Of a stretch of DNA of 64,000 nt, positions 1,832 to 32,593 are shown piece by piece (position 1 is the first letter of the stretch; each line of letters starts with the position of its first letter). The position numbers were made by a program, and so were the translations under genes. The DNA lies in NCBI GenBank assembly GCA_038821645.1, contig JAWBDT010000005.1, positions 1-64,000 of the forward strand. Reading direction: 5' to 3'. The notes beneath the pieces are model-generated. The model ran no database searches and was not told the origin of the DNA. It was given only the letters and a program-made list of their open reading frames with translations. The stretch comes from Ignisphaera sp. (GTDB lineage: Archaea; Thermoproteota; Thermoprotei_A; Sulfolobales; Ignisphaeraceae).

Positions 1832-3550
1832 CTATCTATAGAAAGGCACCACACCTATAAACTCTAACCCAACTGTAAAATCTACATCATTTATAAAATA
1901 TACATTTCTTTGCCCTGGCCTTGTTCCATAGTACCTTCTTTCATAGCTATAGCTGTCTTGAAATGCTACTGCTATCCAGTATCTACCTGTTGATGGAAGA
2001 GGTACATATATTGATTGAGATATTTTCACAAAATAGTTATCTCTACCGAAATCTGTTACACGTGTTTTGTGATAATTGCATATCTCTTGGTATCTATACT
2101 CTCTAACTATATACTCGTTATTGTCTCTATCTATAAGCAGTATCCTTAAAACCCAATCAGTTCTATCAATATCTCCAAGCTGATTTTCATCAGGATGAGA
2201 ATTATCGTGAAAGAATATGTTCATGTATAGAACTACACCAGAATATACACTTCCATCTATTGATCCATCATCTGAACCCAAGGCTCTACCTATCTGCAGA
2301 AGCTTTAAAGTAAGTGGAACAGTAGTCCAATCACTTAAATCATCATTTCTATACATATCATTGATTCTAGAGCTATCACCGTAATACGCATCTTCTGTTA
2401 TAAATATTATCTCGTTTAAACCATTTCCATCTATATCACCTATAAACAGATATGGATAATAAGATGACTCGCCAGTAACTGATTGGCCCGAGGCCATCCT
2501 CATGAATCTAGCTACATATGTAGCAAAACCATTCAAATATATCCTAAGATTTATTGAACTATCTGTAGTTCCATAGTACCAGGCACCTATTGCCGGTAGA
2601 GCTATACCGCTACATCCGCTCGGTACTGTAGAAGAACAGGCAATAATAGTGCTACCTTTTTTTATCTGGATAACACCTGTATAGTTATTTATGACAATTC
2701 TATAGCCATTGCCAGTTAATGTATATTGTTTACCACCTATTGTTATCTTTTCTTGACCTGTAAATCCTGGACCTGCTATCATTATCGTGAATCTCGGTGG
2801 TATATCTTCATTAGGTTTATTCATTTTTTCTCTAACCCAGCTAGGATCATAACCGATTACTGCAACACCAAAAGCTACACCACTACTCTCTGTTTCAACG
2901 GTTGCATTTATGAATTCTGCTTCTTGACCTGGTGGAAGTAGCAATAGTTTTGATGATTTTACTCCTCTGTATCTCACTTGAGCTCTATCTCTTGTGTATG
3001 GTTTTGCTATGAGGCTTCTATCCACATCAAATATTTCTTGTAGATCTTCTGGAGACTTTATGTTGTCGAATGTTATAGATATCATGTAGGTTGTGTTAGC
3101 TCTAACAGCATAAGCTTTTATTAGAGGTTCATGTATATCTACAACTGTTCCACCAGGTGTTACAATAGCTATGTATTCGTAATCTCGTCTACACGTTATT
3201 GCTCTATATGTTGGTATTACATATGAACTACATATACCTTGGGAAACAATGTTTATTGCATCTACAACTTGTATAGAGCCTGTGTAGTCTTTTATTATCA
3301 TTTTGTCTATAACTATATCGCTTGAACCTATATTCTTGATCTCAACACTATTCATGGTTTTATTTAGCACAAGCTGATGTATTTCATGGGAATGTGAGTA
3401 TCTCACAATATTTCTGAATGCTATAGAACTGGTGTATGCAGAATGCATCATATTGAGTATAACATATGTAGATACCACTAAAACTACTAGAGAGATCATG
3501 AATGAAATAAATGCTGTTGAAATACCCTTACCTAGTCTAGATCTATCCAT
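1832..3550 (-). CDS. Large type IV pilin-like (class III signal peptide) surface protein, paralog group A
   Basis: N-terminus RLGKG|ISTAFISFMISLVVLVV; pilin-like 'VEIKNIGSSDIVIDKMII'; DxDxNG loop 'GDIDGNGLNEIIF'; many NxS/T sequons. Confidence 0.8.
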   Translation of the reverse strand: MDRSRLGKGISTAFISFMISLVVLVVSTYVILNMMHSAYTSSIAFRNIVRYSHSHEIHQLVLNKTMNSVEIKNIGSSDIVIDKMIIKDYTGSIQVVDAINIVSQGICSSYVIPTYRAITCRRDYEYIAIVTPGGTVVDIHEPLIKAYAVRANTTYMISITFDNIKSPEDLQEIFDVDRSLIAKPYTRDRAQVRYRGVKSSKLLLLPPGQEAEFINATVETESSGVAFGVAVIGYDPSWVREKMNKPNEDIPPRFTIMIAGPGFTGQEKITIGGKQYTLTGNGYRIVINNYTGVIQIKKGSTIIACSSTVPSGCSGIALPAIGAWYYGTTDSSINLRIYLNGFATYVARFMRMASGQSVTGESSYYPYLFIGDIDGNGLNEIIFITEDAYYGDSSRINDMYRNDDLSDWTTVPLTLKLLQIGRALGSDDGSIDGSVYSGVVLYMNIFFHDNSHPDENQLGDIDRTDWVLRILLIDRDNNEYIVREYRYQEICNYHKTRVTDFGRDNYFVKISQSIYVPLPSTGRYWIAVAFQDSYSYERRYYGTRPGQRNVYFINDVDFTVGLEFIGVVPFYR

Positions 3551-3561
3551 AGATTCATCAC

Positions 3562-5031
3562 CTAGCGACTAGAGAGAGCTATACCTATATACTCTAATCC
3601 GATTATTAAATCTGTATCATTTCTAGTACCTTCGCGACTATAGGGATCTAGAAACTCTATAGCTAGATAGTAGATGTTTCCTGTTTTCGGTATATGTATA
3701 GTAAAGTCCTTAGTTATATATGATATAGAGAATGGCTTTACATTTCTATATCTATTAAGCTCATAGTAGCTAAGCTGAGTACTGTATATAAACGATTTAG
3801 TAGAAGCATCATAGAGACCAACCCTCATTATAACCCTATTATCGTTATCACTTATATCATCTTCAGAACTATCCCAGAAAAACATCCTCATACTGAGTAT
3901 AGCTGAAGAATACATATTGCTATCTATAGGTACACCAGTAAAAACAATTCTTATAGGATCAACCGTAGAGTCTATATAATAGAGATCACTCATACCTTCT
4001 CTGATGTAGTCATTAACTCTCGTTCTATTACCTATTGTGAAATCTTGTGTAACAAATATTATCTCTACATTACTGTTATTATTTATATCGCCTACAAATA
4101 TATATGGATCTAGACCAACAACACCTGATATACTTCTACTCGCATTATATAGTGTAATTCTATCTGCTCTACCATTTAGAACTAGATTGCAGAAACTAGA
4201 TCTATCTATATAGCATGTATGTATACCCAAGCCCAGGTTTATAGATCCTGTGAAATTCTCTATCTTGAGCCTATATCTAACAGGAGCTACCCCAGCTATA
4301 CTCATTATCGAGTCACCAACTCTTATATAGGAATTAGATCCACCTCTCCCTATAGCAAGTATATTTAGTTTTTTGGTTACAGGATCTGCTACACCTATGA
4401 ACACTAGTGAGGCATTGAGTTGTGCTTCTACATTTATGTTTGTACCAGATGCATTTATTATGGGGGTTAATGACGTAGTAGTATTTATTGCACCTCTATA
4501 CATAATTGATTTATTTTCTAAGAACTTCAGCAGTTCAGAAGTTGATTTAAGCATAACACCACCATATATAGTGGTCATAGGTATTCCTAGTGTTTTCTCA
4601 AGAGCTATAGCATAGAATTCGGGATTTACAGAGAATACTCTACCGTTTTCAGTAACAATGGCTATAGGTATATAGCCTAGACAGCTAACCATAGATGTAT
4701 CTCCAGGTCTGAGGATCGTTGATGATATATTGCATAGTCTATTAGATGATACATCAATAACTATTTTCGTGCCATCACTACTAACCACAACTATATGTGT
4801 TATACGTGATACTGTAGAACCAACATTCTTTATATTTAATACATTCTCTATCAAAAATGGAACAAGCTTCTCATTAACATAGCTACTAGGTGTAGCTACA
4901 ACTTGTTGCTGGATCAACAATACTGAATAGAAGTTTAGAATTAGATAAAGTATAGAAATAGCTATAATAGAGAAAGCAATAACAACAGCAACACCTTCAG
5001 CAATACCTCTCCTCAATCTACTACATACCAT
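3562..5031 (-). CDS. Large type IV pilin-like surface protein, paralog group A
   Basis: RLRRG|IAEGVAVVIAFSII; 'LNIKNVGSTVSRITHIVV'; 'AIVTENGRVF'; 'GDINNNSNVEIIF'. Confidence 0.8.
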   Translation of the reverse strand: MVCSRLRRGIAEGVAVVIAFSIIAISILYLILNFYSVLLIQQQVVATPSSYVNEKLVPFLIENVLNIKNVGSTVSRITHIVVVSSDGTKIVIDVSSNRLCNISSTILRPGDTSMVSCLGYIPIAIVTENGRVFSVNPEFYAIALEKTLGIPMTTIYGGVMLKSTSELLKFLENKSIMYRGAINTTTSLTPIINASGTNINVEAQLNASLVFIGVADPVTKKLNILAIGRGGSNSYIRVGDSIMSIAGVAPVRYRLKIENFTGSINLGLGIHTCYIDRSSFCNLVLNGRADRITLYNASRSISGVVGLDPYIFVGDINNNSNVEIIFVTQDFTIGNRTRVNDYIREGMSDLYYIDSTVDPIRIVFTGVPIDSNMYSSAILSMRMFFWDSSEDDISDNDNRVIMRVGLYDASTKSFIYSTQLSYYELNRYRNVKPFSISYITKDFTIHIPKTGNIYYLAIEFLDPYSREGTRNDTDLIIGLEYIGIALSSR

Positions 5032-5047
5032 ATAACTCCACCTTGAT

Positions 5048-6631
5048 TCATCTCATTGGTAATATAGATAGAGACTCTATATAGAGTGTAAAATCAAGAT
5101 CATCTAGATTACCGTTATAGTGATAAGGATCTTGGATAGCTATAAACACATAGAACTTCTTTTCACCAGTTTCTCTTGGTGGAAGAGGTATGAATACTAA
5201 ACTACTTTGTGCTTGTGCTGTTGGTGGATAAGTATCTTCGTATCTCGTTAACTCTCTAAAAGTATAGCTTCTATAGCTATAGATAGCTCCATTCTCATCA
5301 ACAAGACCAACAAGCATTATAGGTCTATCGACAGATATTCCAGTAGCATCGCTACCCTCATTATCATGAAACCTATAGTTAACAGCAATAACAACAGCAC
5401 TACTATCATAATTAGATACAACATAATCTCTATACACCAGGACAAGAGCTTGTGTAGAATAATCAAGTAAAGAATCAACACCTTCATTTCTAGTGGTTAT
5501 ATTTCCCCGTGTTCTGTCTATTGATGTAAATAGTATTCCTGCTGAACCAGAGCTTTTGTCTGTGTTCATGAGCATTATGTATGGATTGTAGCTTGATTCT
5601 GAACCTGTTGAACGTACATATATCTCGATTCTATCAGCTCTACCCCTCAAAACCAATGCACTATTGTTGAATGTATAATCAGCTACATCTTGGCTTGGTC
5701 GTGTGATGGGTTTTCCTCCGAGTCGTAGAATTTCTCGAGGTGATGATGGTGTAAAGCCATATATCTTTATCCTCGTATAAGTGTTTGTTGTTACCCCTGT
5801 GCCACCTATTGATAATGTGTTAGATGTAATTCTATCTGCTGTTATGAGTATGTTGTATCTTGATGTGTTTCTAGGATCATAACCTATCCATAGATTCCTT
5901 ATGTTCAAATTATTTATTATTATCTCTGTGTTTGTATATACATTTTGTAGTCTCCATATGTATTTTGTTGTTGTTCCTCCACTCATACCTTTTCCTAGGT
6001 CTGTGAATTGTGATATTCTTGTTGGATTATCCATATTGTCTAGAGTAGATATGTTGAATGATTTTCTGAAGATAGATATGTTCCATATCTCATCATTTGG
6101 TGCTAGTTTCATGGGTATGACTTGTATTGCTGAAGATATTCCTATAGGTATTGTTGTATTGAAGAGTTGTGATTGTATTTTTTGTAGATCTTCTGGTGTT
6201 AATACTGTGCTACTTATTACTGATCCTTCTACTGTTATTAGGTGTAGAGCTACTGTTCTTTGGTTTTGACATAGCGATGGAATTGGTATGGATATTAGAA
6301 CGGTTTGTCCTGACTTTATTGTTGTTTGTATATGTGTGTCTATGTAGTGGTTTGTGTTTTCACAAGATATGTGTAGAATTGCTTTCTCTATCTCTATATC
6401 TGTTCCACCTATATTGGTTAAATATAGTTCTGAACTTGATGTATTAAGGAATGCCCTAATATCTCTACTCATCTCTTTCATAGCTATTGATACTCTTCTG
6501 GTTATTGGGTTTTCATATAGTTGTTGATTATTTAGTAAAGCATAGTAGATGTGAATTGTTAGAGGTATTACTGATAGTATTAGAATTGAGAAGAATAGTA
6601 TAGCTATTATTATGTTTCCCTGACCCTTCAT
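5048..6631 (-). CDS. Large type IV pilin-like surface protein, paralog group A
   Basis: MKG|QGNIIIAILFFSILIL; 'LYLTNIGGTDIEIEKAIL'; 'LITVEGSV'; C-terminal domain shared with the two downstream genes. Confidence 0.8.
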   Translation of the reverse strand: MKGQGNIIIAILFFSILILSVIPLTIHIYYALLNNQQLYENPITRRVSIAMKEMSRDIRAFLNTSSSELYLTNIGGTDIEIEKAILHISCENTNHYIDTHIQTTIKSGQTVLISIPIPSLCQNQRTVALHLITVEGSVISSTVLTPEDLQKIQSQLFNTTIPIGISSAIQVIPMKLAPNDEIWNISIFRKSFNISTLDNMDNPTRISQFTDLGKGMSGGTTTKYIWRLQNVYTNTEIIINNLNIRNLWIGYDPRNTSRYNILITADRITSNTLSIGGTGVTTNTYTRIKIYGFTPSSPREILRLGGKPITRPSQDVADYTFNNSALVLRGRADRIEIYVRSTGSESSYNPYIMLMNTDKSSGSAGILFTSIDRTRGNITTRNEGVDSLLDYSTQALVLVYRDYVVSNYDSSAVVIAVNYRFHDNEGSDATGISVDRPIMLVGLVDENGAIYSYRSYTFRELTRYEDTYPPTAQAQSSLVFIPLPPRETGEKKFYVFIAIQDPYHYNGNLDDLDFTLYIESLSILPMR

Positions 6632-7284
6632 CCTAGAGCCACCTCATGTACACCAACAATATAGGGTGTACCACCATAGAGTGTAACTATAAATATTCTG
6701 GCTATAGATGTTTCTGGAAGCTGTATTCTGGCTATAGTGCTATCTCTACATAGACCTTGAGTAGATGTGTATCTACATACATTCTCAATTCTACAGATAT
6801 GTATAGTATCTGAAAGTGTGAAGCCCATAGATCTTGCATATGAACGGAAATCAACTATAGATCCTTCCCAAGGCACATACACTCTCTCCATAGATCCAGA
6901 GTATATAGATGAAGAATATATACAGTCTCTCCCAACATCATTACATATAACTCCATCACTATCTCCACGAGGATTATAGAAAGAGATAGAGCTACAAGGC
7001 AGATAAGATGTACCTACATCAACAGCAACAAAAAAATCACTTAGAGATCCATCAATTCTCTTGAACAAGAGCCATAGAGTAGATGCTCTATCATCATAAG
7101 ATATCTCGCTAACAAATATATTAACAGATTCTATCTGAAGATTATTCAATAAATCTAGCTGACTTCTATAGCCAGCAAGTACTGAAGAGAAGTAACTAAG
7201 CATAGCTACACCTACAACAACTGCAAGACCTATATACATGAATGTTGTAAGTAACTCACTCTGACCCTTTACAAACATAACCAT
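6628..7284 (-). CDS. Type IV pilin-like protein, paralog group B (short form, 6 Cys)
   Basis: VKG|QSELLTTFMYIGLAVVVGVAML class III signal peptide; stop overlaps the next start (ATGA). Confidence 0.8.
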   Translation of the reverse strand: MVMFVKGQSELLTTFMYIGLAVVVGVAMLSYFSSVLAGYRSQLDLLNNLQIESVNIFVSEISYDDRASTLWLLFKRIDGSLSDFFVAVDVGTSYLPCSSISFYNPRGDSDGVICNDVGRDCIYSSSIYSGSMERVYVPWEGSIVDFRSYARSMGFTLSDTIHICRIENVCRYTSTQGLCRDSTIARIQLPETSIARIFIVTLYGGTPYIVGVHEVALG

Positions 7285-7328
7285 AATCCTTTACACCATA
7301 TATAATCTACTCTAGATAGATAAAAAAC

Positions 7329-8510
7329 CTAACTAAACTTATAATCATATTCCTCAACTAGATGTGGAACATTGTTTATATAAGTCACAACAAGTATTGA
7401 TAATCTATCGACTTTAGCTTCATCTGGCATAGAACCTATATAAACAGCTCTAGCTATACCTTCGGCATGTAGATTGTTGCTATCAAGTTGTAGAACCATT
7501 TGGGTAGAGCTGTCTATCTTCCAATCCACAACCCTTATATAGTCGCTATTGTTCCAGTAATCAACAAGTGATGAACCTCCATATGTTACTCTTACGAATC
7601 CTGGTGGTGTAGGCATTATCTCTATAGCTAGTGTAGATCTTAGCGAATCTATGTCTATAGCTACCTCACTTCTTATCTCTACATTAACGTTTCTCTCGAG
7701 TAGAGCATTATTTATATATACTCTTTCTGCAAAAACGTTAAACGATAGAATCCATGCACCTCTCTGGCCATTTGGAAGCTGTCCTGGTGTTAAATCTATC
7801 TTTCCTATCCTTGTATTTACATCAACTCTAACAATATCTCCTTCTTTAAGCTGGTACCAACTACCATTAACTGACATATGTGTTCCTCGATTGCCCAGGT
7901 ATGCAACTCTAAACTCTATAGATCCGTAGAGTCTCCATACACGATTATTAGAATGAACCACTACTTTGTTATACCCTTTAGCCACCGGTTCTAGTTCTTT
8001 TGCTAGCTGTAGAACTAGAACAGCGTTCTTGTCTATCTCTAGCTCACATATCTCTATATAGCCTGTATCTGGATATCCTTTAGCTCTAGCATAGTATTTA
8101 AAGCTATAGATAGTGTCTCTAGATACTACAGTAACATCATCAACTCTATGCATATATCTATTGATTATCCTTCCACCAACAACATCTCTAACAACATCTG
8201 AACAATTGATATAGCTACTACCATTAAATAACATAAACCATATCTTGTTGCTGGTGTCAAGTCTTCTAAAAAGTAGAGCTATAGATCCTTTCGAAGAATT
8301 AATAAGTCTCACAATAGTGCTTAACCTCTCGTGCTCAATAACCCTCTGGATAACTAGTAGATTCTGCTGTATACTGTAATCACTCTGCATATAGCTAAGA
8401 AAAGATACAGATAGAGCCATAGCTACTCCAAGCAATATTGCTAGAGCTACTGTATCTGATAGACCTCTACGTAGATTCCTAATATGTGTAGACATATCCT
8501 CTACAACCAT
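7329..8510 (-). CDS. Type IV pilin-like protein, paralog group B (long form with inserted domain)
   Basis: LRRG|LSDTVALAILLGVAMAL class III signal peptide; shares motifs with 6628..7284. Confidence 0.8.
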   Translation of the reverse strand: MVVEDMSTHIRNLRRGLSDTVALAILLGVAMALSVSFLSYMQSDYSIQQNLLVIQRVIEHERLSTIVRLINSSKGSIALLFRRLDTSNKIWFMLFNGSSYINCSDVVRDVVGGRIINRYMHRVDDVTVVSRDTIYSFKYYARAKGYPDTGYIEICELEIDKNAVLVLQLAKELEPVAKGYNKVVVHSNNRVWRLYGSIEFRVAYLGNRGTHMSVNGSWYQLKEGDIVRVDVNTRIGKIDLTPGQLPNGQRGAWILSFNVFAERVYINNALLERNVNVEIRSEVAIDIDSLRSTLAIEIMPTPPGFVRVTYGGSSLVDYWNNSDYIRVVDWKIDSSTQMVLQLDSNNLHAEGIARAVYIGSMPDEAKVDRLSILVVTYINNVPHLVEEYDYKFS

Positions 8511-17206: not shown

Positions 17207-17860
17207 GTGTCCGAGAAGCTCTATAGAACTAGTGAGGTTGCTGAGCTACTGAACATTAGTGTTTCTACTGTTAAAAAGTGGATAAAGCATGGTAGACTAC
17301 ATGCTCTCAGAGTCGGGAAGCTGTGGATGATCCCTGAGAGCGAAGTCAGGAGGATTCTGAGTGGTGTTGAGAGAAAAGAGATTAGAGCCGCTATATACGC
17401 TAGAGTTTCATCACGTAAGCAGAAAACAGATGGTAACTTAGAGCGGCAGATTGAAAGACTAAGAAACTACTGTTCTGCTAGAGGATACAAGGTTGTTGAT
17501 GTGGTAACAGATGTTGCTAGTGGTTTGAATGAGAAGCGTAATGGTCTACAGAAACTCCTCGATATGGCGGTTAAACACGAGATAGATGTTGTAGTTGTAG
17601 AGTTCCGTGATAGATTGACCAGGTTCGGTTTCGAGTACCTTGCTCGGTTCTTCGAGTCGCATGGTGTTAGAGTAGAGGTTGTAGAGGAGAGTGAGAAGGG
17701 TTACATGGATGAACTTGTGGAGGACTTCGTAGCGATAGTAACATCCTTCGCCGCCAGAATATACGGTAAGCGATCCCAGAAGTTCAGGAAGATAAAAAAC
17801 ACCATAGAAGAGGTGGTTGGGAACGGTTACCAAGACAGTTCAGAAGACTTTGAAGATTAA
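17207..17860 (+). CDS. tnpA: IS607 transposase (HTH + serine recombinase)
   Basis: N-terminal excisionase/MerR-like HTH; 'AAIYARVSS'; 'DVASGLN'; 'DRLTRFGFEYL'; 'ELVEDF..I..SFAARIYG'. Confidence 0.95.
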   Translation: MSEKLYRTSEVAELLNISVSTVKKWIKHGRLHALRVGKLWMIPESEVRRILSGVERKEIRAAIYARVSSRKQKTDGNLERQIERLRNYCSARGYKVVDVVTDVASGLNEKRNGLQKLLDMAVKHEIDVVVVEFRDRLTRFGFEYLARFFESHGVRVEVVEESEKGYMDELVEDFVAIVTSFAARIYGKRSQKFRKIKNTIEEVVGNGYQDSSEDFED

Positions 17861-19127
17861 GCTTTTACCAGTCTCCAGGAGAGATAAGGTTCTCGTACAT
17901 AGCTTGCTAAGCGATTACACAAACATTCTCAGGGATGCTTTGAACATAGTTGTTAAAAACGATGTGAAGAGCAAGAAGAGAGCTCACGAGCTCTGCTACA
18001 GGTACCTCAGAGAGAGGTATCCGCATCTTCACAACAAGTACGTTGAGGAAGCCTACAAGAGGGCACTCTTAGTATACAGGAGCTACAGGAAGCTTCTAGG
18101 AAAGTGGATGAAGCATAAACAAGGAAACCCGCCTTCACCACCAAGCGTTGATGCAAACAGAGTGGTTGATCTACACATTGATACTTTCAGAATCGAGGAA
18201 GAAAACAGCTTCAAGATCCTCAGGCTATCTATTGGTAGCGGTGAGTACGCTAGGTTTATCATGCTGGTTTACGACCATGTGTTGAGAGAGCTCAATAACG
18301 CTAAGGTCTCTAACTCGAAGATCATCGTAGATAGAGATGCCCTATACCTTCTCTTAACCATCAGAAGGAATGTTGAAGTGTTTGAGCATAGGAACAAGCT
18401 GGTGATCGACATAAACGAGGACAACGTAGCATGCCTTCTTGTAGATTATGAGAGAGGTAGAGCTGTATTCTTCACGATAAGCTACGACGTAAGCAGGCTA
18501 CGGGAGAACTACAGGAGGATTCGGAGATCTATTCAGAGGAAGGTGGAGAACATCTACGAGAGGAACAGGTTGCTGGAGAAGTACGGTGCTAGAGAGAGGA
18601 ACAGAGTTGAGGACAGAGTGAAGAAGGTTACAACCGTTATAGCTGAAATCGCTAAAACATACAATACAGACATTGTTAGAGAGAACCTGAGAGACATGAA
18701 GATAAACGGTAGGAAAGGTAGCAAGAAGCTGAACTACAGGCTTCAGACACTTCCATACAGAAAGATAATATTCAACCTAGAGTACAAAGCGTACGAGAGA
18801 GGCTTGAACGTTGTGGAGGTTGATGCCAGGAGAACCTCTATAACATGCCCATCCTGCGGGTACGTGGGTAAGGAGAACAGAAGCGGCGACAGATTCAAGT
18901 GCAAGAAATGCAGATTCGAGTTTAACTCGCACTACGTAGCCTGCCTAAACCTATTCTCCCGCCTCAATGACGGTGCGGTAGCCATCAGAGGCGGGAGGAT
19001 ACATATATACCTCGAGGCGGGCCTAGTGGTGCCCGCCGATGTGGCTCCCGATGACTCTGTGAACAATGAGCAGGTGCTGAGGGAGAAGCCCGTGTCGGTA
19101 ATACCCAAGATAATCAAAAACACCTAA
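17817..19127 (+). CDS. tnpB: TnpB (RNA-guided RuvC family) with atypical RuvC-III (His instead of Asp)
   Basis: RuvC-I 'VIDIN', RuvC-II 'VRENL', zinc finger CPSC/CKKC, RuvC-III 'NSHYVACLNL'. Confidence 0.9.
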   Translation: MGTVTKTVQKTLKIKLLPVSRRDKVLVHSLLSDYTNILRDALNIVVKNDVKSKKRAHELCYRYLRERYPHLHNKYVEEAYKRALLVYRSYRKLLGKWMKHKQGNPPSPPSVDANRVVDLHIDTFRIEEENSFKILRLSIGSGEYARFIMLVYDHVLRELNNAKVSNSKIIVDRDALYLLLTIRRNVEVFEHRNKLVIDINEDNVACLLVDYERGRAVFFTISYDVSRLRENYRRIRRSIQRKVENIYERNRLLEKYGARERNRVEDRVKKVTTVIAEIAKTYNTDIVRENLRDMKINGRKGSKKLNYRLQTLPYRKIIFNLEYKAYERGLNVVEVDARRTSITCPSCGYVGKENRSGDRFKCKKCRFEFNSHYVACLNLFSRLNDGAVAIRGGRIHIYLEAGLVVPADVAPDDSVNNEQVLREKPVSVIPKIIKNT

Positions 19128-21624: not shown

Positions 21625-22602
21625 TCATTTATGCAATATTTTCTTGATATCTTCGACAAGTTCGCAGAACTTGCATATCGATCTATTTGGTGATGTTGGT
21701 TCTCCACAAATTTTACAGGTAGGTAAAGCTATACGTGGTTTCACGAGTATGTTGGCTATTGTGTTGTCCAAGAATTCTAAAAGCTTTAGCTGAACACCTG
21801 GATAAAGCTTCTCTAGCTCAATCAATACATCTCTAACTTTTGTTCTAAGTGTAGGTCTTGTTACTATATAGGGACATTCATATTCTTGAAAAGTATATCC
21901 AAGTAGGTATGCATAATATGCAGATTCATATTCGTATATGCTTCTCAATGGTTTAACTCTCTTAACCAGTTTGTCGCTATGTGTTTCACTTAATGGATGA
22001 AGTTGTGCAAGCCTCATTACATCACCACGTATAATGTTTATAATATATGTCTGAATCTCGTCATCAAGATTATGTCCAGTAACAACTTTGTTTGCTTTTA
22101 GTTCTCTTGCATACATGTTTAAAATTCTTCTCCTAGCTATTCCACAATAAGTACATGCAGATATAGAGTACATATTGTTTTCTTTAGCGTATTCTAGATA
22201 AAACCTCATAAACCTATCAACACTAAAGTCTAGGATTTTCTCCATAGATACATAAATACAGTCTACACCAATATCTGAACAGAATTTTCTTACCGCAATA
22301 TACATATCTTCACGTGTATAGCCAGCTATACCTTCATCTATCATTACACCAATTATGTTGTTAGGGTTAACTATTTCTGAAAGTATATGTAGTACAACAT
22401 AACTATCTTTGCCACCAGAGACTCCTACAACTACCCTATCTCCAGAACTTATCATAGAATAACGTGATATCTGTTCTTTAACTCTATAGCGTATATCGTT
22501 AATGAAGCACTCTTTACACAACCTTCTTCCACTATGTTTCTGAAAGAATGTGGCCTGATTTTTGCCACAGACGCTACATATGACCATATATTGATATCCC
22601 AC
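21625..22602 (-). CDS. ttuA: tRNA 2-thiolation protein, TtuA/Ncs6 family
   Basis: Zinc-finger CxxC at both ends; PP-loop SGGKDS; 'ACTYCGIARR'; 'TGHNLDD'. Confidence 0.92.
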   Translation of the reverse strand: MGYQYMVICSVCGKNQATFFQKHSGRRLCKECFINDIRYRVKEQISRYSMISSGDRVVVGVSGGKDSYVVLHILSEIVNPNNIIGVMIDEGIAGYTREDMYIAVRKFCSDIGVDCIYVSMEKILDFSVDRFMRFYLEYAKENNMYSISACTYCGIARRRILNMYARELKANKVVTGHNLDDEIQTYIINIIRGDVMRLAQLHPLSETHSDKLVKRVKPLRSIYEYESAYYAYLLGYTFQEYECPYIVTRPTLRTKVRDVLIELEKLYPGVQLKLLEFLDNTIANILVKPRIALPTCKICGEPTSPNRSICKFCELVEDIKKILHK

Positions 22603-22842: not shown

Positions 22843-22990
22843 TCCCCGCCCTAAAGGGGGTTCAGCTCTGATGTAGGTTTATATCGGTTGATGTCATTGC
22901 TTCATCTCTTTGTTCCCCTGCATTGGTCTTGGGTTTGCATCACCCTTAGGGGCGTTCAGGGGCACCCCTAGACCCCACATCTTGAGTACC
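22843..22990 (-). ncRNA. Predicted omegaRNA of the nested tnpB (overlaps the tnpB 3' end and runs to the right end plus guide)
   Basis: GC-rich structured segment GGGGTCTAGGGGTGCCCCTGAACGCCCCTAAGGG...GCAGGGGAAC directly 3' of tnpB, where TnpB omegaRNAs are encoded. Confidence 0.55.
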
Positions 22991-24086
22991 TTAGAAATAA
23001 GTTTATGCATGCGATTACATCTCTATCTCCTATGAATCCACATCTAGTGCATCGCATTACTCTATTACCGTTGCTCTCGAGTTTGTTTCCACATCTTGGA
23101 CAAGTTGATGATGTCTTTACTGGGTTGACGTATCTAACTGCTAGTCCTCTCTCTAATGCTTCATATACTATGGTGAACTGCATCTTTCTGTAGAACCACA
23201 GGGATAGCTTCTTGTTGAAATTGCTACCTCTATTCACGTTACTCCTGAGATTGCTTAGGTTTTCAAGAACTATGATTGAGCTGTGTTCATTAGCTATCTT
23301 CGCTACTCTATCACCCAGCTTGTGTGCATAGTCCCAAGCAATACTCCTTATTCTTTCTCCATGTCTTTTAATCGCTCTTCTAACTCTTCTGATGAATCTC
23401 CATGACTTTGAGTACTTTCTCTGAATCTTCTCGATCCATATCCTGTGCGTCAGTATCTTTCTGAGTAGTGTCTTGAATCGCTTCAGCTTCAACAACTCTC
23501 CACTAGGTGTAAACACAGCTAGCGTAATATTGTCGAAGTTCATGTCAACAGTCATAACAGTTCTAGTTTCTCTTGGTTCAACTGTTTTCCTGAAGTATAC
23601 TGCTACATAGACCTTGTCTCCAACTACCTTCACAGCTATTTCGTAGTTGCTCCAAGCTCTGAACTTCTCTATCCTGTCAATAGATGTTAGTAGTCTTAGT
23701 TTAACCTCTCTACCGCTATGTATCTTTAGAACAAGCATTCTGTTCTCTAGGTCTAGCTTGTAGTCGTATTTATCTATTCTAGCTGATAGTCTTCTTAGAA
23801 CCGGTTTCTTCCCACCGTTCTGCTTACTGGCTCTAGCAATTGCTTTAGCGTAGACGTAGATCTGCTTCACGTGGTGTGCTCTGAAACCGTGCTTCCTGAG
23901 CTCATTGTAGAACATTCTGTGCAGAGTTTTAATTGAAGGCACTTTGTTTAAACTCCACAGCTTGTTGATAACGAATTGAGTTGCATCACGGTACAACCTC
24001 AGGAACTCAAGTAGAGTAAGATAGTCATCGCTACCCTTGGGGAGAGCTCTCATCTTAAGTGTTTCAACAAGCTCTCCCTCCCTCAT
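22968..24086 (-). CDS. tnpB: TnpB RNA-guided endonuclease with an intact D-E-D triad
   Basis: RuvC-I 'TVDMN', RuvC-II 'VLENL', zinc finger CPRC/CTRC, RuvC-III 'DRDVIACINL'. Confidence 0.93.
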   Translation of the reverse strand: MREGELVETLKMRALPKGSDDYLTLLEFLRLYRDATQFVINKLWSLNKVPSIKTLHRMFYNELRKHGFRAHHVKQIYVYAKAIARASKQNGGKKPVLRRLSARIDKYDYKLDLENRMLVLKIHSGREVKLRLLTSIDRIEKFRAWSNYEIAVKVVGDKVYVAVYFRKTVEPRETRTVMTVDMNFDNITLAVFTPSGELLKLKRFKTLLRKILTHRIWIEKIQRKYSKSWRFIRRVRRAIKRHGERIRSIAWDYAHKLGDRVAKIANEHSSIIVLENLSNLRSNVNRGSNFNKKLSLWFYRKMQFTIVYEALERGLAVRYVNPVKTSSTCPRCGNKLESNGNRVMRCTRCGFIGDRDVIACINLFLRYSRCGV

Positions 24087-29729: not shown

Positions 29730-31538
29730 TTAATCTAAGTAAAAGTATTGTCCTATAGATTTCTGGTATCTATCTAGATAACTATTGGGCTTATTTATTC
29801 TAGGTCTACCTGATTGAGGATCTCTCCTCATCGTTATATTGAGTTCTTTCAAGAAATTATTGAATGTTTTAGCAACAGCATCTGGAGCATTTCCATATCC
29901 CTTTGAGCCGGGGATCCCTGAAAAGAACATAAGCCTATCTACGGCATAGTCTATGAGCAATACATTGTGGTCAACAACAAATATTGATGCCTTTCTTATT
30001 CTTGCTACACGCCTTATTACTCTCGATACTGATAACTGATCTTCTACATCTATATGAGATGAGGGTTCATCTAGAAGATATATATCGGCTTCTTGTATTA
30101 GTGTACGAGCTATATGAAATTTCTGTAATTCACCTCCACTTAAAGTGGATACATCTTTAGACATTAGTCTATCAAGGTTAAGCCGCTTAATTATTTCACT
30201 ATTCATCCAATTACCTTCAGCTAGAGCCTCCTTGTTTGCATTCTTTAAGCATTCTTCAACAGTCATACAACCTTCTATCTCTCTTGGGAGATATTGAGGT
30301 TTATAACTTAACTTAAATGCTACAGTTGTTGTGTAACCATCATCAGGCTTGATTTCGCCTGCAAGAATTTTTATGAATGTTGTCTTACCTATGCTGTTAG
30401 GACCTACAATCCCTATAACTTCACCTCTATGCACCTCTCCGGGCTCTACATAAAGCTCGAAACTGTTTAATCTCTTCCTAATTGTTCCCCAAGAACATAA
30501 TACCTCGCTATATTCTACCTCTCTCTCATTCCTAGATTCATGTAATCTAAATGTTATACTCTCAGATCTTATCTTCATATTTTCAGAAGGTAAGAAACCT
30601 TTTAAATAGTAGTCTATACCAGCATTAGTTGGGTACAGATTTGAAAATATACCATAAGTACCTGGTACACCATATGTTATAACAACATTATCAGCTACAT
30701 AGTCTAGGAATGTTAAATCATGATCTACGATAAACACGTATCTATTGCGTGCTACAAGTTCATCTAATGCTTTAGCAAGTACTACTCTTTCTTTTATATC
30801 TAAATAGCTAGTAGGTTCATCAAATAGATACACATCTCCTTCTTTCATTAATGCAACAGCTATAGCAAGTTTCTGTAGTTCTCCTCCACTTAAGATGCTA
30901 ATATCCTTGTCAATAATGTTTTCCATATTTAATACTGATATAACGTCCCTAAATAATCCACGTTCATCAACCTTTGCTAGAATTGATTTTACACTACCCT
31001 TTTTAACGTATTTAGGTATATACTCTATATACTGAATCTTATGAACTATCTTTAGATTTTGAGCATAAAGGTTAGCAAAGTATTCATAGAATTGTGTACC
31101 CTTAAACTTATCAAGCACATAGTCTGTCTTTACCTCACCTTCATATTTACCAAAGTTCGGGATAATGTTACCAGACAATATCCTTAAAGCTGTTGTTTTA
31201 CCTGCACCATTAGGTCCTATGATTGCTACAAACTTTCCTTTTACGGGGATAGGTAGCCCATATAATTTAAATGCATTGGGTCCGTATCTATGGATAAGCT
31301 TTTCCTCTATTTCTTCTGGAAGATTCACTATCCTTATTGCAGCAAAAGGACATTTTTTGATACATATACCACAAGCAATACATTTATCCTCGTATATGAG
31401 TGGCTTTCCATTTTTATTCTCACTAAGCTCTATTGCTTTATAAGGTCTTGTTCTATTTATTGGACAAAACCTAATACACGGTATACCACATTTTTGTGGA
31501 TTACAAAGATCATAATCTATTGAGGCAACTCTAACCAT
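29730..31538 (-). CDS. Ribosome recycling ATPase ABCE1 (Rli1)
   Basis: N-terminal two-[4Fe-4S] Cys motifs; two ABC domains with LSGGELQ; 'RPRINKPNS'. Confidence 0.97.
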   Translation of the reverse strand: MVRVASIDYDLCNPQKCGIPCIRFCPINRTRPYKAIELSENKNGKPLIYEDKCIACGICIKKCPFAAIRIVNLPEEIEEKLIHRYGPNAFKLYGLPIPVKGKFVAIIGPNGAGKTTALRILSGNIIPNFGKYEGEVKTDYVLDKFKGTQFYEYFANLYAQNLKIVHKIQYIEYIPKYVKKGSVKSILAKVDERGLFRDVISVLNMENIIDKDISILSGGELQKLAIAVALMKEGDVYLFDEPTSYLDIKERVVLAKALDELVARNRYVFIVDHDLTFLDYVADNVVITYGVPGTYGIFSNLYPTNAGIDYYLKGFLPSENMKIRSESITFRLHESRNEREVEYSEVLCSWGTIRKRLNSFELYVEPGEVHRGEVIGIVGPNSIGKTTFIKILAGEIKPDDGYTTTVAFKLSYKPQYLPREIEGCMTVEECLKNANKEALAEGNWMNSEIIKRLNLDRLMSKDVSTLSGGELQKFHIARTLIQEADIYLLDEPSSHIDVEDQLSVSRVIRRVARIRKASIFVVDHNVLLIDYAVDRLMFFSGIPGSKGYGNAPDAVAKTFNNFLKELNITMRRDPQSGRPRINKPNSYLDRYQKSIGQYFYLD

Positions 31539-31583
31539 TAATTATTGACCTCTCTAGAAATCTAACTTGGTAGTTAAAGTAGC

Positions 31584-31590
31584 AAAAAAA
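31584..31590 (-). terminator. Oligo-T terminator after the Glu/Trp micro-ORF
   Basis: T7 run on the minus strand about 25 nt after the stop at 31616. Confidence 0.45.
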
Positions 31591-31615
31591 TGCTTTAGTC
31601 ATATACCCGAGGCTA

Positions 31616-31690
31616 TCACCATTCTTCTTCTTCCCACTCTTCCTCTTCTTCCCACCATTCTTCTTCTTCCCACTCTTCCTCAAACATCAT
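31616..31690 (-). CDS. 24-aa Glu/Trp micro-protein (MMFEEEWEEEEWWEEEEEWEEEEW)
   Basis: ATG at 31690 with SD-like GGTG upstream, TTTAAA box near 31726-31731, downstream T7; GAA and GAG alternate in frame. Confidence 0.65.
   Translation of the reverse strand: MMFEEEWEEEEWWEEEEEWEEEEW
31617..31681. repeat. Direct repeat, 29 bp x2, period 36
   Basis: CACCATTCTTCTTCTTCCCACTCTTCCTC at 31617-31645 and 31653-31681. Confidence 0.9.
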
Positions 31691-31796
31691 TTATCTACAC
31701 CAGCATTAGCTTCACAAAACTGGGATTTAAAAATATTTTCTGTAGATAATTTATTAATGTGCTTAAATATATCACAAAGAACATGTATCTGTAACT

Positions 31797-32315
31797 CTAA
31801 TCTTTAATTAATAGATTGCTACATCCAATAATTCCTAAGACTATCTTGCCATATTCAATACTATCAAATATTCGAATTCTGTCTTCACCAATCTTTGTCT
31901 TTAAGTAATCGACGTAAAATTGATTTAGATACGAATCATGAGTCTCATACACGAAACTGCATTTAGTATTCTCTAAAACATTTCTCAATACTTTTGAAGT
32001 ACATTCATTAATTGAATAAACAAGTAGAAGTTTATGTCTATCTGAAAATCTTGAAAGATACTTATTTAGTACTGTATGTATTTGTCTTTCTGCAAAAAAC
32101 CTTATGTAGAATTCTAGCTCTGGCTTTCTTGCTACATTCTTCTTAGTTTCCACAGCTTTAACAGTATTAAAGAAAGCTAACACGATATTCTGCCATGGTG
32201 CCTTGAGCCCTTGGAGCAACATACACAATCTTACTCCACTACATAATTCATTAACTTTTGTACAAATTTCTTCATATTGATCTGACTCACATTGAATAAA
32301 TGCTAACAGTATCAA
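31797..32315 (-). CDS. cgi121: KEOPS complex subunit Cgi121-like
   Basis: 'KNVARKPELEFYIRFFAERQI' matches the Cgi121 motif; crenarchaeal S17e-Ubl-Cgi121 gene order. Confidence 0.75.
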   Translation of the reverse strand: MILLAFIQCESDQYEEICTKVNELCSGVRLCMLLQGLKAPWQNIVLAFFNTVKAVETKKNVARKPELEFYIRFFAERQIHTVLNKYLSRFSDRHKLLLVYSINECTSKVLRNVLENTKCSFVYETHDSYLNQFYVDYLKTKIGEDRIRIFDSIEYGKIVLGIIGCSNLLIKD

Positions 32316-32593
32316 ATAGATCCTCCATGGGCTATAGGTACAATTGTTACAATGTCCTCATTCTTTACTACAATATTGCTTATTCCACCATAAACGTTAA
32401 TGTCAATATCGTTAACTAATATCAAGTATTCATTTTGAAAATCACTATCATCAAATATTTTTTTGAGTTCAGATACAGCATCAACAAGTCTAGCGAAAAA
32501 AATGTGTAGAGGTTCCTCGCCAGGAATCTCTACATCTATTTCAGATAAACCTAATCTTGATCTTAAATGACCTAGAAATCTTACCTTGACTAT
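32312..32593 (-). CDS. Ubiquitin-like Urm1/SAMP (MoaD/ThiS fold), 93 aa, apparent ATA start, C-terminus HGG-SI
   Basis: Translated by hand: (M)VKVRFLGHLRSRLG...YLILVNDIDI...KNEDIVTIVPIAHGGSI; SD GGGTGA 5 nt before ATA; in-frame TAG immediately upstream. Confidence 0.88.
   Translation of the reverse strand: MVKVRFLGHLRSRLGLSEIDVEIPGEEPLHIFFARLVDAVSELKKIFDDSDFQNEYLILVNDIDINVYGGISNIVVKNEDIVTIVPIAHGGSI

Follow-up and report, generated by a model that had tools for sequence, protein, structure and literature searches.

We analysed a stretch of 64,000 nucleotides (nt) from the archaeon Ignisphaera sp. (GenBank assembly GCA_038821645.1, contig JAWBDT010000005.1, positions 1 to 64,000, hereafter the window) and found a very short open reading frame (ORF), made almost only of Glu and Trp codons, directly upstream of the gene for ABCE1, the ribosome-splitting ATPase. 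On comparative sequence evidence, this micro-ORF is a real and tightly constrained protein-coding micro-gene that is in all probability translated. The micro-gene appeared genuine and strikingly constrained, and its tie to ABCE1 was plausible. The reading that we favoured, at a probability of about 0.4, was that the micro-ORF may act as a cis-acting, hard-to-translate leader, the continuity of its translation setting the read-through past U-tracts into ABCE1.

Conservation of the Glu/Trp reading frame

A sequence-only reading of the window had drawn attention to a 24-amino-acid Glu/Trp peptide upstream of ABCE1. The frame was found on the minus strand:

31616..31690, minus strand, micro-ORF of 24 codons plus a TGA stop (31616-31618), opening with ATGATG, product MMFEEEWEEEEWWEEEEEWEEEEW

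The peptide was about 70% Glu and 20% Trp, carried a net charge of about -17 and was encoded by a tract with a purine content of 84-87%. Both Glu codons were used (12 GAA and 4 GAG), as the sequence-only reading had said. It had also described an in-frame duplication with a 36-bp period, which was recovered as an exact direct repeat of 29 nt at 36-nt spacing, in frame and with an 18-nt sub-period:

31617..31681, minus strand, internal duplication, with exact 29-nt copies at 31617-31645 and 31653-31681

When up to two mismatches were allowed, the motif GARGARGARTGGGARGAR had five matches in the 64 kb, four of them within the micro-ORF, against an expectation of 0.06, and none of 100 shuffles reached five matches. 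Moreover, the micro-ORF was the single compositional outlier among the 72 short ORFs of the window (10-50 codons, with an ATG preceded by a Shine-Dalgarno (SD) motif). Namely, its two commonest residues made up a fraction of 0.88-0.91, and the next best ORF reached 0.60.

Relatives were obtained by comparing ABCE1 as a query with genome contigs, which gave 15 loci. Seven of them (L001-L006 and L008) came from metagenome-assembled genomes (MAGs) of the Ignisphaera/Desulfurococcales type, with ABCE1 proteins 64-76% identical to the query. The remaining eight comprised an Undinarchaeota MAG (L007, ABCE1 40% identical) and seven bacterial loci that matched through the ferredoxin domain only. Counts over eight genomes refer below to the window, L001-L006 and L008. 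An orthologous micro-ORF was present at the same position in 7/7 loci of the Ignisphaera lineage, in each case with a Cgi121-like gene on one side and ABCE1 on the other, and the micro-ORF motif was absent from L007 and from the seven bacterial Fer4-only loci (7 of the 15 loci matched). The products in the relatives were as follows:

L001, MMFEEEWEEEEWEEEEWEEEEWEEEEW
L002, MMFEEEWEEEEWWEEEEEWEEEEEEW
L003, MMLEEEWEEEEWWEEEEEWEEEEW
L004, MMFEEEWEEEEEWWEEEEEWEEEEW
L005, MMFEEEWEEEEEEWWEEEEEWEEEEW
L006, MMLEEEWEEEEEWWEEEEEWEEEEW
L008, M-N-MYFEEEWEEEEEEEWWEEEEEWEEEW, the second ATG being the likelier start by SD spacing

The eight micro-ORFs were 24-28 codons long and had exactly five Trp, 16-19 Glu and no Asp; the L001 peptide, without the WW doublet, still had its five Trp. 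All eight peptides began with M-x-[F/L]-EEE-W, the acidic triple occupying residues 4-6 in seven of them, and all ended with an invariant ...EEEW, so that the C-terminal residue was Trp in 8/8. The segment WWEEEEEW was shared by 7/8. Lys, Gly and Arg were absent from every peptide.

The pattern of change was specific to the Glu/Trp frame. Frame-breaking indels in relatives had been named by the sequence-only reading as an observation that would speak against it. None was found, and the length differences among the eight micro-ORFs were whole codons only. The stop codon varied in identity (TGA in three genomes, TAA in four and TAG in one) and always lay directly past the last TGG (8/8). In the 19 aligned Glu columns, codon positions 1, 2 and 3 were variable in 0, 0 and 17 columns, and over all 27 aligned codon columns in 2, 1 and 19. 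The pairwise GAA/GAG mismatch at third positions averaged 0.39 (28 pairs) versus 0.42 expected at saturation. The acidic codons of the eight ORFs were 139 Glu (97 GAA and 42 GAG) and not a single Asp, whereas in eight long genes of the window Asp accounted for 252 of the 549 acidic codons. Glu thus made up 139 of the 205 codons, and Trp made up 40 of the 205, versus 25 of 4639 in the eight long genes. The micro-peptides were 91-96% identical to each other, compared with 64-76% for ABCE1 and 26-40% for the Cgi121-like protein, and the DNA past the micro-ORF stop, including the spacer, could not be aligned between clades. Because this frame-specific constraint was held across diverged genomes, the micro-ORF is in all probability translated. 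The expressed look ascribed to it by the sequence-only reading was borne out by a frame that was intact and constrained at the amino-acid level in 8/8 genomes. By this pattern of substitution, selection is acting on the Glu/Trp reading frame, and the gene has long been kept in the Ignisphaera lineage.

The same substitutions bore on two other interpretations of the tract. In the first, it would be an RNA or DNA element, rich in purines and non-coding (a protein-binding GAR repeat, a triplex or a small RNA (sRNA)), in which the ORF is incidental. Such an element would account for the high purine content, its 3-nt unit would yield in-frame indels by slippage alone, and every variable site was indeed an A-to-G or G-to-A change that kept the purine. 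However, a constraint on purines only would allow A/G changes at all codon positions, unlike the 0/0/17 distribution of the Glu columns. An ATG with an SD motif at the right spacing was kept in 8/8 genomes, and a stop of varying identity stayed fixed past the last TGG. Searches for RNA features also spoke against a non-coding element. Rfam 15 gave no match at the gathering threshold in the window and none at E up to 1 in 31450-31850; RNAalifold on the eight sequences found no conserved pairs; and the single-sequence fold had z = -1.07, with 30 of 200 shuffles folding at least as well. A structured RNA was rejected on these three results. For a C/D-box sRNA, the C-box-like ATGATG was present, but the D motif CUGA was absent by eye. 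Pairing between the U-tract and the GAA-tract, seen in the minimum-free-energy fold of the window, was dismissed as not significant, trivial for such tracts and unstable at the growth temperature of the lineage.

The second interpretation concerned the public annotation. None of nine versions of the Glu/Trp peptide occurred in a collection of about 15 billion proteins. Annotated instead was a 50-amino-acid Lys-rich ORF in the +1 frame with a TTG start (31531..31683, minus strand; 'hypothetical protein QW101_02035 [Ignisphaera sp.]'). In favour of this protein as the real product, its exact 50-residue sequence was in the public collection and the +1 frame was open for 27-55 codons in 7/8 genomes. 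Against it, the frame had no start codon in L008, its tails past the repeat were unrelated in sequence and length, and its TTG lay 7 nt further from the SD motif than the ATG did. Its own third positions, which are the first positions of the Glu frame, never varied, and its second positions were near saturation with K/R and N/S changes, the reverse of a coding signature. It overlapped the ABCE1 start in the window only. Since the substitution pattern contradicted both interpretations, we regarded the non-coding element as very improbable and the +1-frame protein as more improbable still. From the sequences, it looks as if the public annotation follows the wrong frame at this locus, presumably since gene callers have length limits that the true ORF does not reach. 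The Lys-rich +1 frame and the Arg-rich +2 frame were accordingly both rejected as the product. An antisense ORF of 60 amino acids (31567..31749, plus strand) was set aside as well: it had no Pfam match, was absent from the protein collection, and all of its variable sites were non-synonymous (F/L or L/P).

Expression signals between the Cgi121-like gene and ABCE1

The signals and genes around the micro-ORF of the window, in the direction of transcription, were as follows, with BRE standing for transcription factor B recognition element:

31797..32315, minus strand, gene for a Cgi121-like protein (KEOPS subunit) of 172 amino acids, the upstream neighbour of the micro-ORF
31721..31740, minus strand, BRE/TATA-like element of the micro-ORF, AATATTTTTAAAT, TATA-like core at 31725-31734, a putative promoter
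31698..31701, minus strand, SD-like GGTG, 7 nt 5' of the micro-ORF ATGATG
31584..31590, minus strand, run of seven T (T7) beginning 26 nt past the micro-ORF stop, a candidate archaeal U-tract terminator or attenuator
31571..31580, minus strand, weak TATA-like ACTTTAACTA, about 37 nt 5' of the ABCE1 ATG, a possible ABCE1 promoter picked by eye and speculative
31548..31554, minus strand, SD-like GAGAGGT, 9 nt 5' of the ABCE1 ATG
29730..31538, minus strand, ABCE1 / RLI, 602 amino acids (Pfam ABC_tran 5e-41, Fer4_RLI, Fer4)

The public record names the last gene 'ribosome biogenesis/translation initiation ATPase RLI [Ignisphaera sp.]' / I. aggregans. The micro-ORF lay 77 nt from ABCE1 on its 3' side and 106 nt from the Cgi121-like gene on its 5' side. 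The interval 31584-31735 singled out by the sequence-only reading proved to be the span from the T7 run to the TATA-like box, and the box, the SD-like GGTG and the stop that it listed were all present in the sequence. Its 'T7 terminator' held up only in part: the T7 run was there, but it was merely a run of T, and a scan of the window for hairpin terminators found no sites. A sigma-70 promoter scan returned 4 sites versus 3.3 expected, which, for a bacterial consensus applied to an archaeon, was uninformative.

The putative promoter box was near-identical in relatives (AGAAATATTTTTAAT in L001-L003 and AGAGAAATGCTTTTAT in L004-L006), and its distance to the ATG recurred at the FBPase gene and at further genes of the window. 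The start of the micro-ORF was preceded by GGTG or GAGGTG at 7-9 nt in 7/8 genomes and by GAGGA in L008; GGTG at 7-10 nt before an ATG was common among the window genes. In the window, a 14-nt inverted repeat (31686-31699 and 31741-31754, 86% complementary) flanked the promoter box and entered the start codon. It was not seen in the relatives' sequences and may be a regulator site or chance.

In 8/8 genomes the micro-ORF was on the same strand as ABCE1 and 54-115 nt upstream of it, with spacers of 77, 94, 88, 111, 78, 54, 54 and 115 nt that kept no constant phase. A read-through or frameshift fusion to ABCE1 was rejected on this variable phase and on the use of all three stop codons. An SD motif preceded ABCE1 in 8/8 genomes and was of the GGTG/GGGT/AGGT type in all seven relatives. 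A run of at least four T occurred between the micro-ORF and ABCE1 in 8/8 genomes, 17-60 nt past the stop. Moreover, a T6 run abutted the ABCE1 SD motif in 7/7 relatives, 13-18 nt upstream of the ATG; the stretch about 13-24 nt upstream corresponds to locus positions of about 3977-3988. The run may be an attenuator, a promoter-proximal element or a translation signal. This T6-SD arrangement left too little room for a separate promoter of an SD-led mRNA, and it speaks for transcription of ABCE1 at least partly from upstream, via the U-tracts. The window had no T6 abutting the SD motif; its T7 run lay 46 nt upstream of the ABCE1 ATG. In L005 only, at about 3947-3960, a perfect inverted repeat of 6+6 nt with a 2-nt loop was visible by eye directly past the micro-ORF stop. 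Two architectures were possible, namely an operon with an internal attenuating terminator or two separate units.

A proposed leader for ABCE1 and competing roles

The sequence-only reading had suggested both a leader that controls ABCE1 and a free peptide that modulates a factor, and these were also our two foremost hypotheses. The elements of the leader model that we observed were a conserved ORF with the signature of translation, its N-terminal EEE, downstream U-tracts and an SD-led ABCE1. In this model, the acidic triple of the N-terminal M-x-[F/L]-E-E-E would destabilise the translating ribosome from within, a process called intrinsic ribosome destabilisation (IRD). In a reconstituted E. 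coli system, IRD is provoked by three Glu at the N-terminus and relieved by ABC-F ATPases with twin nucleotide-binding domains (NBDs) (PMC11162784), and IRD has also been described in eukaryotes (PMC9718836, PMC12673854). By the published description of IRD-type sensors (PMC11162784, bioRxiv 10.1101/2021.02.02.429294), at least three Asp, Glu or Pro stand among the first residues, and this was the case in 8/8 peptides. The later Glu runs are punctuated by Trp, the bulkiest residue, whose bulk would counteract IRD. It has been reported that IRD is strongest at N-termini and that bulky residues near the peptidyl-transferase centre counteract it (bioRxiv 10.1101/2021.02.02.429294, PMC11162784). 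With five codons for Trp, which has the rarest codon, and 16-19 for Glu, the ORF would moreover be sensitive to charged tRNA-Trp and tRNA-Glu.

A ribosome that crosses the ORF while coupled to RNA polymerase would allow the polymerase to pass the U-tracts of the 54-115-nt spacer, and ABCE1 would be made. Alternatively, the ribosome that has crossed the ORF may re-initiate at the ABCE1 SD motif. If the ribosome aborts or stalls, transcription would be uncoupled and would end at a U-tract, either intrinsically or with the assistance of aCPSF1/FttA. The dose of ABCE1 would thereby follow ribosome stability and translational health, or the supply of tRNA-Glu and tRNA-Trp. We infer from these elements the uncoupling of aborting or starved ribosomes, the termination before ABCE1 and the resulting control of dose. 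It has been found that the U-tract and aCPSF1 set termination efficacy in an archaeon (PMC8716108), and termination at internal U-tracts is known to tune operon genes in an archaeon (PMC10450193, PMC8716108). A Rho-like policing of transcription-translation coupling by FttA was hypothesised by the authors of PMC11616081.

A more specific form of the model can be put forward only tentatively, as less probable than the general one. In this form, the micro-ORF would be the first archaeal leader-peptide rheostat, a risky Glu-run ORF with Trp 'ballast'. Its completed translation would license read-through into ABCE1 by ribosome-polymerase coupling, which would exclude FttA/aCPSF1, and the ABCE1 dose would respond to ribosome stability (Mg2+, polyamines, temperature) or to tRNA-Glu/tRNA-Trp supply. 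In a variant of the rheostat, the released peptide may also act in trans on a patch of the ABCE1 NBD1, giving one gene with two functions.

The closest known parallels were leader ORFs of bacteria. Like MgtL and other enterobacterial N-terminal IRD sequences, the micro-ORF was very short, lay just upstream of the gene that it would regulate and had an acidic run past its start, with EEE following [F/L] in 8/8 peptides in the manner of the N-terminal 3E that induces IRD (PMC11162784). Such sequences have a functional tie to twin-NBD ABC ATPases: EttA relieves pausing at acidic residues that fall among the first 30, those of the leader MgtL included (PMC11282234). On the other hand, MgtL-type motifs combine Asp with Glu and Pro and are coupled to RNA structure and to Rho, whereas the micro-ORF used Glu only and kept five Trp. 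It was also archaeal, preceded ABCE1 and had no conserved RNA switch that we could find, and its assignment to IRD would be by analogy.

Stalling leader ORFs govern the genes of ABC-F ATPases that associate with the ribosome, as in msrDL-msrD (PMC10314930). In both cases a short ORF precedes a ribosome-acting twin-NBD ABC ATPase, and the same logic would apply, trouble in leader translation setting the dose of a rescue factor. However, the msrDL-msrD type is bacterial, senses antibiotics and works through hairpins that terminate transcription or mask the ribosome-binding site, and ABCE1 belongs to another ABC subfamily with no known inducer.

The trpL/hisL attenuators and the mycobacterial polycysteine ORFs (bioRxiv 10.1101/834739) likewise place a tiny ORF rich in one or two kinds of amino acid 5' of a gene, and tandem Trp codons occurred in the micro-ORF (WW in 7/8). 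A Trp/Glu-sensing leader had been among the suggestions of the sequence-only reading, and in its classical attenuator form this fitted poorly. Unlike trpL/hisL, the micro-ORF had no alternative terminator and antiterminator hairpins (0 conserved pairs, z = -1.07 and 0 hairpin terminators, as above), the genes downstream (ABCE1, fructose-1,6-bisphosphate (FBP) aldolase/phosphatase and triose-phosphate isomerase) were not Trp or Glu pathway genes, and the whole peptide was conserved rather than the regulatory codons alone.

Several points weighed against the leader reading. No conserved RNA structure joined the ORF to the ABCE1 start, as the alignment fold and the single-sequence fold had indicated. 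The spacer varied in length (54-115 nt), and the first T run came at no fixed distance past the stop (17-60 nt). ABCE1 may have a promoter of its own. In the window this would be the weak TATA-like box about 37 nt upstream, and A/T-rich boxes were seen by eye at -26 to -38 of ABCE1 in several relatives, although the ACTTTAACTA box of the window was not conserved in them as such. Taken with its T run, the micro-ORF also has the look of a gene complete in itself. The whole 10-kb neighbourhood, from HerA to genes beyond FBPase, had the same synteny in 7/7 loci, and adjacency to ABCE1 is therefore weak evidence. A 3D motif behaved like 3E in IRD (PMC11162784), and thus IRD leaves the exclusion of Asp (0 of 139 acidic codons) unexplained. 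Trp could abolish IRD rather than tune it. In the cited work, IRD was shown in bacteria and eukaryotes, not in archaea. Finally, ABCE1 is universal in archaea, yet the micro-ORF is known from the Ignisphaera lineage only.

The self-contained look of the unit, with its own promoter-like box, SD motif, ORF and downstream T run, also suited a free micro-protein. This would dock on the NBD1 patch of ABCE1, or on other factors that bind aP1, in competition with the ribosomal stalk, and would adjust the activation of the ATPase and the splitting of ribosomes. The extreme constraint (five Trp and a C-terminal Trp in 8/8, no Asp) went beyond the apparent need of a stalling tract, and if the two ORFs are co-transcribed, their partnership in an operon would argue for a shared function. 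The C-terminal 18-mer of aP1 binds ABCE1 NBD1 as an induced helix via hydrophobic residues (PMC6125642), and the N-terminus of yeast eIF3j was placed at a similar position, which the authors called a 'multivalent interaction patch' (PMC7780240). Both tails, like the micro-peptide, are flexible and strongly acidic and have hydrophobic or aromatic residues in key places, and the patch that they bind belongs to ABCE1 itself, whose gene begins 77 nt past the micro-ORF.

However, the likeness to stalk tails that the sequence-only reading had proposed fitted poorly in its specifics. The aP1 tail helix contacts ABCE1 at i, i+3 and i+4 (L103, L106 and F107; PMC6125642), a triad that the micro-peptides did not reproduce: their Trp residues were adjacent or 4-8 apart, with spacing that differed between species. 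The second Glu run was 4-7 and the last 3-6 residues long, and with such variation no constant helical face was preserved. The micro-peptide would also be free rather than part of a tail, and its N-terminal poly-Glu may hinder full synthesis. Docking on ABCE1 would thus be a hypothetical binding by analogy, and we considered it rather unlikely as the main role.

The same evidence of coding and constraint was compatible with a free micro-protein whose target has no relation to ABCE1. It might be a nucleic-acid mimic, a polyanionic 'glue' (on the tRNA-binding face of Cgi121/KEOPS, a chromatin protein or ribosomal proteins) or a cation-binding or chaperone-like polyanion. The micro-ORF was comparably near to the Cgi121-like gene and to ABCE1 (106 and 77 nt). 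Variable Glu spacers with a constant number of Trp were more in keeping with a disordered sticker-and-spacer peptide than with a fold. In eukaryotes, small acidic disordered proteins with Trp, such as DSS1/Sem1, act as binders of this kind. Similar to these and to acidic DNA or RNA mimics, the micro-peptide was a small polyanion in which a few Trp would give specificity, but it was only about a third of their length and simpler in composition. Furthermore, with synteny kept region-wide the neighbourhood said little about a partner, and the strict exclusion of Asp was not obviously needed by a generic polyanion. We judged a target unrelated to ABCE1 to be unlikely, and less probable than docking on ABCE1. 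A precursor of a ribosomally synthesised, modified peptide or of a cofactor (PqqA-like) was rejected. No maturase such as a radical-SAM enzyme was adjacent, the neighbours being Cgi121-like, Urm1-like, S17e, ABCE1 and FBPase genes, with the same synteny in the seven loci.

Genomic neighbourhood and significance

The G+C content of the window was 34.7%, and informational genes were dense in it, including those for ribosomal proteins, SecY, aIF2-alpha, Nop10, two PCNA, PriS, TgtA and NcsA. Around the micro-ORF, the order of genes on the minus strand was S17e, the Urm1-like gene, the 172-amino-acid protein, the micro-ORF, ABCE1, FBP aldolase/phosphatase and triose-phosphate isomerase. The 172-amino-acid protein had no match in a Pfam search. 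The NCBIfam Cgi121 model matched its homologues below the cut-off in 4/4 tested, and a profile of eight homologues matched PDB 1zd0_A with E=4e-8 and three Cgi121 chains with E of about 0.008. By these profile matches, it is most likely a very divergent KEOPS subunit Cgi121, only 26-40% identical among the eight genomes despite the kept synteny.

The Urm1-like ORF (32312-32593, minus strand) scored 37 bits with the NCBIfam model Urm1_like, below the cut-off. It had no ATG, GTG or TTG in its first approximately 56 codons and opened with ATA directly past a stop, 5 nt past an SD-like AGGGTGA, which suggests a non-canonical ATA start. Elsewhere in the window, an IS607-family transposase and a TnpB-like gene occupied 17207-19127, and a second TnpB-like gene was at 22968-24086. 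Between the two TnpB-like sites were the genes for L13e, an ORF of 335 amino acids with no known function and NcsA (tRNA 2-thiolation, 21628-22602). Urm1-type sulfur carriers have NcsA as their partner enzyme, and the tRNAs that it thiolates include tRNA-Glu. This was a curious echo, in that an ORF with Glu as its only acidic codon lay two genes from a Urm1-like gene. At 1832-8510 on the minus strand, six large ORFs of 218-572 amino acids formed a run with no NCBIfam match at E up to 1e-5. Several of them had stops and starts that overlapped or abutted, with strong SD motifs, and the run looks like an operon of unassigned function.

No description of a Glu/Trp peptide or of a leader ORF of archaeal ABCE1 was found in the titles and abstract openings of the literature on upstream ORFs of archaeal ABCE1, archaeal leader peptides and Sulfolobus acidic small proteins, which is not proof of absence. 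The case points to a systematic blind spot of annotation, in which a 24-codon frame was missing from about 15 billion proteins and the wrong frame was annotated in its place. Since the peptide is readily synthesised and intrinsically fluorescent, the leader and the free-peptide hypotheses would both be cheap to test.

To our knowledge, ABCE1 occurs in all archaea and eukaryotes and is essential to them. Tryptophan is the costliest residue, and five copies of it were kept in the micro-ORF of every species examined. A product that acts as a free peptide would stand out among polyanionic effectors as unusually small and extreme. Should the micro-ORF be a sensor that works in cis, then nascent-chain or IRD-type sensing and translation-coupled control of termination would reach into archaea and would be tied to the ribosome-recycling factor.

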